From the sequence record PQ435593.1: a DNA stretch of 45,245 nt; one strand, 5' to 3'. Below the pieces are notes generated by a model. It worked only from the letters and a program-made list of their open reading frames with translations, searched no databases and had not been told where the DNA came from. Below, piece by piece: positions 3,258 through 4,297 of the stretch. The stretch's first letter is position 1; each line of letters begins with the position of its first letter. Source of the stretch: Escherichia phage vB_Eco_K-01. The position numbers were made by a program, and so were the translations under genes.

Positions 3258-3746
3258 TCAACCTTTCACCGCGCGCCCGATAGCCTCAGCCTCCTGCCAC
3301 GGTTTACCGTCGAACAGCGCCAGACGACCGGCGGTACGACGACGCAGTCCAAGTATCGGTTTGCCGTTCTGGTTGATGAACAGCGCCAGCTTAGCCCGCA
3401 GCGTTGCAATATCACCAGAACGCAGTGCCTTACCCGTGCCGGTAGTAGCAGCAATCACACCAGCACCTGCGTTGTAGACCAGGTCGCAAACAGCGTCGAA
3501 CTGTGCCTGTGTCAATGAATGGTGTGCTGCTGCGTCAACAGCAGCTACAGCCTTAGCCATATCACGGTTCAGTAACAGGAGGCCTTGTCCGGGGGTGATG
3601 GTCTTGCCTGGCGTTACGTCTGGCCCATAATGACCGTACCCAATAGTCAGGTACTTCTCATTTGGCGTAGCACGATACGCAGTTCCGCGGAATCCCTCGA
3701 ACGCGGCGGTAAAATGCAATCCATTATCTGAAATATTTCGAGACAC
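3258..3746 (-). CDS. endolysin, GH24 lysozyme (T4/P22-lysozyme-like)
   Basis: Catalytic-region motif AAFEGFRGTAYRATPNEKYLTIGYGH matches the E...D...T pattern of phage GH24 lysozymes. The track start at 3797 is a TTG; the in-frame GTG at 3746 is preferred because it is preceded by GGAGGA and gives a typical N-terminal length. Confidence 0.8.
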   Translation of the reverse strand: MSRNISDNGLHFTAAFEGFRGTAYRATPNEKYLTIGYGHYGPDVTPGKTITPGQGLLLLNRDMAKAVAAVDAAAHHSLTQAQFDAVCDLVYNAGAGVIAATTGTGKALRSGDIATLRAKLALFINQNGKPILGLRRRTAGRLALFDGKPWQEAEAIGRAVKG

Positions 3747-3996
3747 GCTTATGTCCTCCGTACGATAGCCACGCCTGACGAATCTGACGCAGCGCAACTA
3801 ATGTGATTAACGTCTCGGGCAGCGTCGGCGACATGCTGCCCTGTAACAGGTGGATACATCCGGCGGCGCAGACAATAGCGGTCAGGATATAGAGCACCCG
3901 GCCAAATAGCCCGTCGTCAACGCTGGGATGATACACATTAAACAGCGATGTGCCTCCGATTGCGAGCATACCGCCGAACCAGAATAACTCATTCAT
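3724..3996 (-). CDS. small membrane protein of the lysis cassette (second holin or antiholin candidate)
   Basis: Internal ATG of track ORF 3724-4194 at 3996 with a GAGGAGG ribosome-binding site; about 90 aa with two hydrophobic helices; overlaps the holin stop and the endolysin start. Confidence 0.5.
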   Translation of the reverse strand: MNELFWFGGMLAIGGTSLFNVYHPSVDDGLFGRVLYILTAIVCAAGCIHLLQGSMSPTLPETLITLVALRQIRQAWLSYGGHKRVSKYFR

Positions 3997-4297
3997 CCAG
4001 GCCTCCTCGACGTGAGATGTATTCTCCGGCGACGATACCGGAGAGGCGGGAATAGATGGGCATCCAGAGAATAGCGATAATGAATCCGAGGCCTGCAATT
4101 TCACGGTCGCCCGTGATGCCAAACCATTGAGCGGCAAGAGGTGCGCCGAAAATGGCGCACGCGAAGCCGGTGAGAAGAAATACCAGTCCGTCAATCGGCC
4201 CGGATATAGACTTTTTATGTTGTCTTAGTCCGACCAATCCACCGACCAGTGCGGCAGCGAGAAGCCAGCCTGTCACTGTTTCAGTAAATTTATCCAA
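3989..4297 (-). CDS. holin
   Basis: 102 aa with three hydrophobic segments and a charged C-terminus; TTG start preceded by GGAGGA; directly upstream of the endolysin. Confidence 0.6.
   Translation of the reverse strand: MDKFTETVTGWLLAAALVGGLVGLRQHKKSISGPIDGLVFLLTGFACAIFGAPLAAQWFGITGDREIAGLGFIIAILWMPIYSRLSGIVAGEYISRRGGLDE

Follow-up and report, generated by a model that had tools for sequence, protein, structure and literature searches.

Separate holin-endolysin and spanin loci in Escherichia phage vB_Eco_K-01 very probably represent the regular gene order of the Guernseyvirinae

The lysis genes of Escherichia phage vB_Eco_K-01 (sequence record PQ435593.1), whose 45,245-nucleotide (nt) sequence is the window analysed here, lie in two separate sets on the minus strand. 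Three overlapping genes at 3258-4297 encode a holin (holin 1), a second small membrane protein (holin 2) and a GH24 endolysin, while an overlapping pair of inner- and outer-membrane spanins (i-spanin and o-spanin) is encoded at 39813-40308. We found that this split layout is very probably the standard and invariant arrangement of the Guernseyvirinae, including Kagunavirus, judging from the gene order of relatives, and that the split itself is already known, annotated and published. An earlier note on this DNA had identified both gene sets and their separation, which the coordinates and database matches given below bear out. It had also placed the two loci ~35 kb apart, called the layout atypical and proposed that it implies different timing of expression, claims which fared less well.

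By its sequence, the window is a complete Kagunavirus (Guernseyvirinae) genome opened at an arbitrary point of a circular map. The gene for the large terminase (TerL) occupies 45245-43985 on the minus strand and continues across the junction of the window's ends into 11-1, with no stop in the translation over the joined ends, and its length of 1272 nt (11 + 1261) is that of TerL in Bas75. Because this open reading frame (ORF) reads uninterrupted across the joined ends, the window is a closed circular permutation; the gene order of Bas75 is collinear with it after reverse-complementing and rotation. Headful packaging has been predicted by PhageTerm for the relatives Shashou and Sciku. Measured round the circle, 8,194 nt of the minus strand separate the stop codon of the endolysin gene from the i-spanin start downstream of it, and the gap of ~35 kb is therefore an artefact of linearisation, the real one being ~8.2 kb. 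This interval contains ~10 small ORFs followed by the genes for the small terminase (TerS, 1-549, minus strand), TerL, portal, MuF-like and Hoc-like proteins. As these last five precede them, the spanins do not open the structural array, so that their proposed place at the head of the late structural operon holds only in the sense that they are the first ORFs after a terminator and promoter-like site described below. They do lie, as had been stated, directly upstream of the scaffold (39026-39784, minus strand) and major capsid (38034-39026, minus strand) genes.

This layout recurs throughout the relatives that we compared. The head region matches many Kagunavirus records at 94-97% nucleotide identity, and the 2.4-kb segment containing the scaffold, spanin and Hoc-like genes has matches in 482 phage records, with the same gene order in FSL SP-031 (Cornellvirus), LSPA1 (Jerseyvirus) and K1ind1 (Kagunavirus). 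We also fetched loci from IMG/VR via the i-spanin and scored the endolysin spacing where upstream DNA sufficed. The spanin pair was found between the Hoc-like and scaffold genes in all 48 loci, and the endolysin gene lay 7.2-9.1 kb upstream, on the same strand, in each of the 22 loci with enough upstream DNA. Variation in the layout is confined to a cargo slot (40309-40916) that separates the spanins from the Hoc-like gene; it holds a reverse-oriented 67-amino acid (aa) ORF in the window, an endonuclease VII gene in LSPA1, a PAPS reductase gene in FSL SP-031 and nothing in K1ind1. The 67-aa ORF (40684-40887, plus strand) has no PHROG match, and its own TTGCAC-type promoter-like site stands upstream of it both here and in Bas75. 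A spanin homologue also sits between the MuF-like and scaffold genes in the Dhillonvirus HK578. The arrangement is thus atypical only against the lambda paradigm.

The separation had been recorded before. Both spanins were annotated at this position in the GenBank record of K1ind1 (2010), the two lysis gene sets of Schulenberg were described as 'genetically separate' in 2019 (PMC6763661), and the same was reported for fBC-Eco01 in 2023 (PMC9825357), Golestan (PMC7203180) and SeF1 (PMC9409062). Kongari 2018 (PMC6139136) defined the 'Jersey' family of overlapped spanins, with a 155-bp overlap and conserved Cys45 and Cys67, and the list of its members includes K1G, K1H and K1ind1-3. The claim as first stated therefore matters little, since this gene order is normal, and published, for a subfamily that is large and well sampled.

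In the holin-endolysin cassette, holin 1 (3989-4297, minus strand) has 102 aa, the same length as Bas75_0069, and starts at a TTG codon behind the ribosome-binding site (RBS) TGGAGG-N7-TTG. It matches phrog_2359 'holin' (E 2.7e-30), and its hydropathy profile, with three hydrophobic segments and a charged C-terminus ending in RRGGLDE, resembles that of class I holins. Holin 2 (3724-3996, minus strand; phrog_2508 'holin', E 1.7e-33), which may be a holin or an antiholin, has 90 aa, as does Bas75_0070, and combines one strong transmembrane domain (TMD) with a weak, Gly-rich N-terminal one and the tail KRVSKYFR, also by hydropathy. Its gene overlaps that of holin 1 by 8 nt and starts at GAGGAGG-N5-ATG. 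GenBank records name the two membrane proteins class I and class II holin-like, or holin and antiholin. The endolysin gene (3258-3746, minus strand), which overlaps that of holin 2 by 23 nt, comprises 162 codons from a GTG start. Its product is predicted to be a soluble GH24 enzyme, with matches to PF00959 (94 bits) and phrog_7, and aligns from residue 1 with PDB 8HP8 ('Endolysin mtEC340M', a crystallised 161-aa coliphage endolysin; E 1e-97). At the hydropathy threshold chosen we detected no hydrophobic segment in it, and neither an N-terminal membrane segment nor a signal or signal-arrest-release (SAR) segment. The cassette thus has the canonical holin-endolysin make-up, in which TMD proteins with a charged C-terminus adjoin an endolysin devoid of secretion or SAR signals.

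The longer, TTG-started ORFs of the mechanical ORF list for holin 2 (156 aa) and the endolysin (179 aa) were rejected as over-extended. The shorter starts are fixed by the RBSs, by the annotated relatives and by the ranges of the PHROG alignments, that to phrog_2508 covering residues 67-156 of the long holin 2 ORF.

Upstream of holin 1, a 9-bp hairpin (AUCCUCCAG-N22-CUGGAGGAU, 4303-4342, minus strand) carries the holin 1 Shine-Dalgarno (SD) sequence in its 3' arm. It folds with -21.4 kcal/mol (z -2.8), a value that none of 200 shuffled sequences equalled. Neither the hairpin sequence nor the TTG start varies among nine distinct Kagunavirus versions, which leaves no covariation to test. Together, the TTG start and the SD-sequestering hairpin probably damp holin 1 translation. 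Directly upstream of holin 1, and in a shared unit with it, lies a gene for an HslV-family peptidase-like protein (4357-4797, minus strand; phrog_1040, E 1e-34) that has no counterpart in Bas75.

Regarding the second locus, the i-spanin (39922-40308, minus strand; 128 aa; phrog_2536, E 1.1e-56) has a TMD at residues 1-23 followed by a Gln/Ala/Lys-rich periplasmic domain with Cys92, and tblastn found homologues of it in 664 phage records. The o-spanin (39813-40076, minus strand; 87 aa; phrog_5672, E 4.4e-30; phrog_1267, E 2.7e-20) is translated from a GTG codon in the frame +1 to that of the i-spanin. Its sequence includes a lipobox, LSAC (Cys22), and a Pro-rich mature part that begins SSSPAPSQTPIPSP and contains Cys45 and Cys67. 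The o-spanin gene starts inside that of the i-spanin and extends past its end, leaving an overlap of 155 nt (39922-40076). An i-spanin with an N-terminal TMD, an o-spanin with a lipobox, a 155-nt overlap and Cys45/Cys67 are the sequence marks of the overlapped 'Jersey' family, and all are present. Searches of Pfam and NCBIfam gave nothing useful for holins or spanins; for the spanin ORFs no Pfam family reached its gathering score, DUF2514 scoring 16.4 bits against a cut-off of 26.

The two loci appear to belong to different transcription units, whose boundaries we placed by conservation and position alone. A predicted intrinsic terminator (CCCGGC-N9-GCCGGG followed by T8; 3162-3191, minus strand), read in the sequence and folded, closes the unit that bears the cassette, which fits the earlier description of the cassette as standing at an operon end. 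It is kept in Kagunavirus. In Jerseyvirus-like loci both arms have changed with the stem preserved (CCCGGTA...TACCGGG), and a corresponding hairpin and T-run occur in FSL SP-031. The endolysin gene is hence followed by this terminator and by no spanin, unlike in a contiguous lambda-type cassette. Behind the terminator, a promoter-like site (TTGACT-N17-TATATT, 3139-3111, minus strand) would begin the transcription unit that leads into the terminase genes, and this terminator-then-promoter boundary is conserved across Kagunavirus.

Upstream of the cassette we found two promoter-like sites of the form TTGCAC-N17-TACTATTCA on the minus strand, one at 7716-7747 and one at 6431-6462, the latter being the nearest upstream site of the lysis-bearing unit, 29 nt before an ORF that starts at 6402. 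Two further sites on the plus strand (31182-31213 and 40628-40659) stand ahead of reverse-oriented islands in the structural region. These are four exact matches in the window where 0.16 are expected, and every one of them has a gene start on its own strand 20-45 nt downstream. Sites of this type occupy equal positions in Bas75 and lie upstream of holin 1 in loci L019, L029 and L036. The motif has in common with three near-consensus promoters of replication genes (TTGACA-N17-TATAGT at 11445, 14356 and 18116, plus strand) the palindromic core GAATAGT-N3-CTATT, which may be a common operator. The repeat consensus 'tgAATAGTa-ccTATTat-T' of the fBC-Eco01 paper corresponds to it and was attributed there to a phage RNA polymerase (PMC9825357).

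We considered whether the 32-nt repeat TGAATAGTAnCCTATTATrTTGGGGnGTGCAA, which is this motif on the other strand, could be a late promoter facing the spanins, and rejected this in favour of the opposite orientation, as a promoter of the reverse or leftward genes. The latter was preferred because the fourth copy, with another spacer and the same hexamers, lies 20-45 nt from same-strand starts like the others, and because K1ind1 has spanins but neither a reverse gene nor the repeat. The palindromic core common to the replication promoters leaves some ambiguity on this orientation.

The spanin unit is preceded by a different set of signals. A predicted bidirectional terminator (40893-40913) separates the convergent 67-aa ORF from the Hoc-like gene, whose stop is at 40917. 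It folds with -18.5 kcal/mol on the plus strand (z -3.8), and in Bas75, K1ind1, LSPA1 and SP031 the Hoc-like gene has an equivalent GC hairpin behind it. Next comes a promoter-like site with an extended -10 element (TTGACT-N14-TGaTAAGCT, 40533-40561, minus strand), upstream of which are two copies of TTATTCC, one GGAATAA and the palindrome CTATTCGAATAG (40562-40614). This site is conserved from Kagunavirus to Jerseyvirus and is recognisable in the Cornellvirus SP031. The spanins are the first ORFs after the terminator, this site and a leader of ~200 nt. At 40333-40354 (minus strand), ending 25 nt before the i-spanin ATG, a GC hairpin followed by UUUACUUAU resembles a terminator or attenuator. 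It folds with -20.8 kcal/mol (z -3.0), and its stem is kept by paired changes (GCCCUGC/GCAGGGC, GCCCCGC/GCGGGGC and GCCCGGC/GCCGGGC).

Several points weigh against this description of the two loci. The promoters, terminators and leader are all predicted, with boundaries from conservation and position, and the number of sites that consensus scans for promoters and terminators returned for the window did not exceed that for shuffled sequence. The U-tract of the hairpin before the i-spanin is poor, and transcripts from upstream units may run on into the spanin unit. Finally, the spanin function of the 39813-40308 products is assigned from sequence features and family membership.

The earlier note took the split for an unusual design, in which the spanins would be made late with the head genes and the holins and endolysin early, hence at a different time. 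The novelty part of this proposal is at odds with the finding that the arrangement is normal for the subfamily and already described. As for the expression of the loci, different timing is plausible because they have different promoter types (TTGCAC-N17-TACTATTCA before the lysis block, TTGACT-N14-TGnTAAGCT with its leader before the spanins) and because the conserved terminator after the endolysin parts the cassette from the packaging genes. Since the TTGCAC class carries the core of the replication-gene promoters, an early or middle class would suit it. RNA-seq of K1B4, the only time course available for Kagunavirus, places the lysozyme, MuF and capsid genes in one broad 'middle' class, from only three time points within a 30-min latent period; public K1B4 reads (PRJNA939978 / PRJCA028359) cover 5, 15 and 30 min. 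With supplements that hold no per-gene time course, it is too coarse to settle the question. A clean early/late division is also opposed by a paralogue of the spanin promoter and leader which heads the leftward block containing the cassette. The 'early' holin block and 'different timing' were thus inferred, with the promoter motifs leaning slightly their way, and we regard the design as a whole as a tentative possibility that falls well behind the standard subfamily arrangement.

The most interesting by-product of our analysis is the leader RNA upstream of the spanins, whose structure is supported by covariation. Conservation in the ~300 nt before the i-spanin gene far exceeds that of the spanin protein itself: in two loci whose i-spanins are just 65% and 73% identical to that of the window, the leader is still 95% identical. 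Copy A of the leader (40415-40538, minus strand) would form three nested helices (40501-40437) followed by an invariant GGAAGG. A covariance model built from a hand-drawn three-helix structure, searched against the sequences collected in this analysis, found 63 copies, 35 of them distinct. Compensatory changes were seen in 12 of 20 pairs and 90.7% of cells were paired, against 26-43% when the partners were slid, and none of 500 shuffles reached the observed values; these pair counts are biased towards the drawn structure, as the alignment was fitted to the covariance model. RNAalifold on a plain MAFFT alignment recovered the outer helix only, the inner ones needing the hand-drawn structure and the covariance-model alignment. 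An Rfam search of 40250-40950 gave no match at gathering score (best E 1.3). Throughout Kagunavirus and Jerseyvirus the spanins are preceded by this leader, and Cornellvirus gives a weak match (31.9 bits).

We rejected as non-coding a 36-aa ORF at 40403-40513 which is annotated in Bas75, as neither K1ind1 nor the paralogous copy B keeps its frame intact. A switch between antiterminator and terminator forms involving the leader and the downstream hairpin was also dropped, as the candidate pairing does not co-vary.

Copy B (7909-8056, minus strand) stands at the head of the leftward block whose last genes are the lysis cassette. It is ~80% identical to copy A over 148 nt, promoter hexamers included (copy A with its promoter spanning 40561-40415), and the two score 145 (A) and 112 bits (B) in the covariance model. 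This pair raises the idea that the lysis loci are co-regulated, the promoter and leader copies acting in cis like put or 6S/tR' antitermination elements that carry transcription past internal terminators. A GC hairpin trails each copy by ~100 nt (7807-7827 for copy B), and terminator-like hairpins occur inside the downstream units at 6738-6717 and 37884-37863. The hairpin at 6738-6717 tells the other way too, since it and a separate TTGCAC site (6462-6431) intervene between copy B and the holin genes. Moreover, most relatives, Bas75 among them, lack copy B (of 180 matching phage records, ~53 have two places), and it is without the upstream TTATTCC and palindrome elements of copy A. This proposal is drawn from sequence, and we consider it unlikely that the previously undescribed cis leader RNA (promoter, ~65-nt three-helix element, GGAAGG, AU-rich linker and GC hairpin) is an antitermination or attenuation device coupling both lysis loci. 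Whatever its role, the leader, together with the distinct promoter motifs, would offer a route to testing directly how late genes and lysis are scheduled in therapeutically popular coliphages and in Salmonella phages.

The leftward promoter-like site with copy B belongs to a control region (7716-8072) between the leftward block and a gene for a helix-turn-helix (HTH)/excisionase-like protein (8072-8332, plus strand). Because no more than 15 nt part the -35 element of this site from the start codon of the HTH gene, transcription of the latter must begin within the leader or on its far side, and the two transcripts would have overlapping antisense 5' regions.

It is most improbable that the 39813-40308 ORFs encode small head-assembly or membrane accessory proteins merely resembling spanins, as their position within the head module and the sub-threshold Pfam score might suggest, given the diagnostic pairing of a TMD protein with an out-of-frame overlapping lipoprotein bearing a lipobox and conserved periplasmic cysteines, the strong PHROG spanin matches and membership of a curated spanin family, a 39%-identical homologue directly after the lysozyme gene and downstream of a Q-like antiterminator gene in the lambdoid Klebsiella phage 2 LV-2017, and the fact that we found no other spanin candidate adjoining the endolysin.

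A split of this kind could be tolerated in the following way. Holin would accumulate in the inner membrane until triggering, thereby setting the time of lysis and releasing the endolysin, with its translation probably damped by the TTG start and the SD-sequestering hairpin. The spanins would be made alongside the abundant head proteins and wait harmlessly across the periplasm, held by intact peptidoglycan until the endolysin acts. Since they would be inert until the endolysin has degraded the peptidoglycan, the time of their synthesis should not be critical, and for this reason their separation from the cassette may be tolerated and stable.

The genome is mosaic, as the window is 100% identical at nucleotide level to phage vB_EcoS-phiEc3 over 39000-41400 (head and spanin region) and only 92.4% identical in the lysis region. 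TerL proteins of otherwise close relatives (loci L007-L053) are either ~99% or ~54% identical, which points to two alternative terminase alleles.

The 3' end of the capsid gene contains a perfect 77-nt tandem duplication (38014-38167) that shifts the frame and replaces the last ~37 residues, leaving a 330-aa ORF. Removal of one copy restores a 349-aa capsid protein matching that of Bas75, and the duplication was seen in none of seven relatives checked; either misassembly or a defective variant probably accounts for it.

The region from the endolysin stop to the terminator (3162-3261, minus strand) may hold a small RNA gene, with a promoter-like TTGACA-N17-GATACT site and then a CU-rich stretch of ~60 nt. 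The start of this stretch, AUCACCUCCU, is the anti-SD end of 16S rRNA. The module is intact in relatives, even in those with extra genes inserted after the endolysin. Its resemblance in Rfam, to the CU-rich 'Betaproteobacteria toxic sRNA', stays below threshold, with 25 bits where the gathering score is 50. The sole gathering-level Rfam match in the whole window is an int-alpA RNA (RF02996) at 31099-31163 (minus strand; 36.6 against 35.8 bits), just above threshold, in the leader that separates a reverse-oriented gene island from the gene for the tail assembly chaperone. No tRNA was found in the window by ARAGORN.

Compared with other Guernseyvirinae (K1ind1, Schulenberg, fBC-Eco01, Golestan, Jersey and FSL SP-031), the genes, their order, strand and spacing are all as in the window, the common order being holin-holin-endolysin, small ORFs, TerS-TerL-portal-MuF-Hoc, the variable reverse slot, i/o-spanins, scaffold and capsid. 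There is no difference of substance: the window has the 67-aa reverse ORF in its slot and, as in a subset of relatives, the second leader copy. The spanins are alike in overlap and in Cys45/Cys67 to the 'Jersey' family, whose function is itself inferred, with no difference detected (PMC6139136). The leader RNA is similar to the put RNAs of HK022 and to 6S/tR' of lambda in being a cis RNA right after a promoter that heads a long operon, and in having two paralogous copies, each followed by a hairpin. It is unlike HK022 put and lambda 6S in that no sequence or Rfam relationship links them and in that the second copy is missing from most relatives.

In lambda, the S-R-Rz/Rz1 cassette heads the late operon, after PR', 6S RNA and tR'. 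The same four functions are present in vB_Eco_K-01, where the spanins alone are the first ORFs after a promoter-like site, a ~200-nt leader and a terminator-like hairpin, ahead of the head genes. In contrast to lambda, the holins and endolysin are not contiguous with the spanins, the spanin genes are overlapped rather than embedded, and no Q-like antiterminator was identified in this genome. T7 has its spanin genes 18.5/18.7 between those for the terminase, with the lysozyme gene 3.5 elsewhere. In T4, the spanin genes pseT.3/pseT.2 are 'not located near' t and e (PMC6139136). The window resembles T4 and T7 in that its spanins are unlinked from holin and endolysin, and differs from them in that the holins and endolysin stay together, the phage lineages and spanin families being unrelated. 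Contiguous lysis cassettes are thus not universal, and spanin genes can be stably split off.

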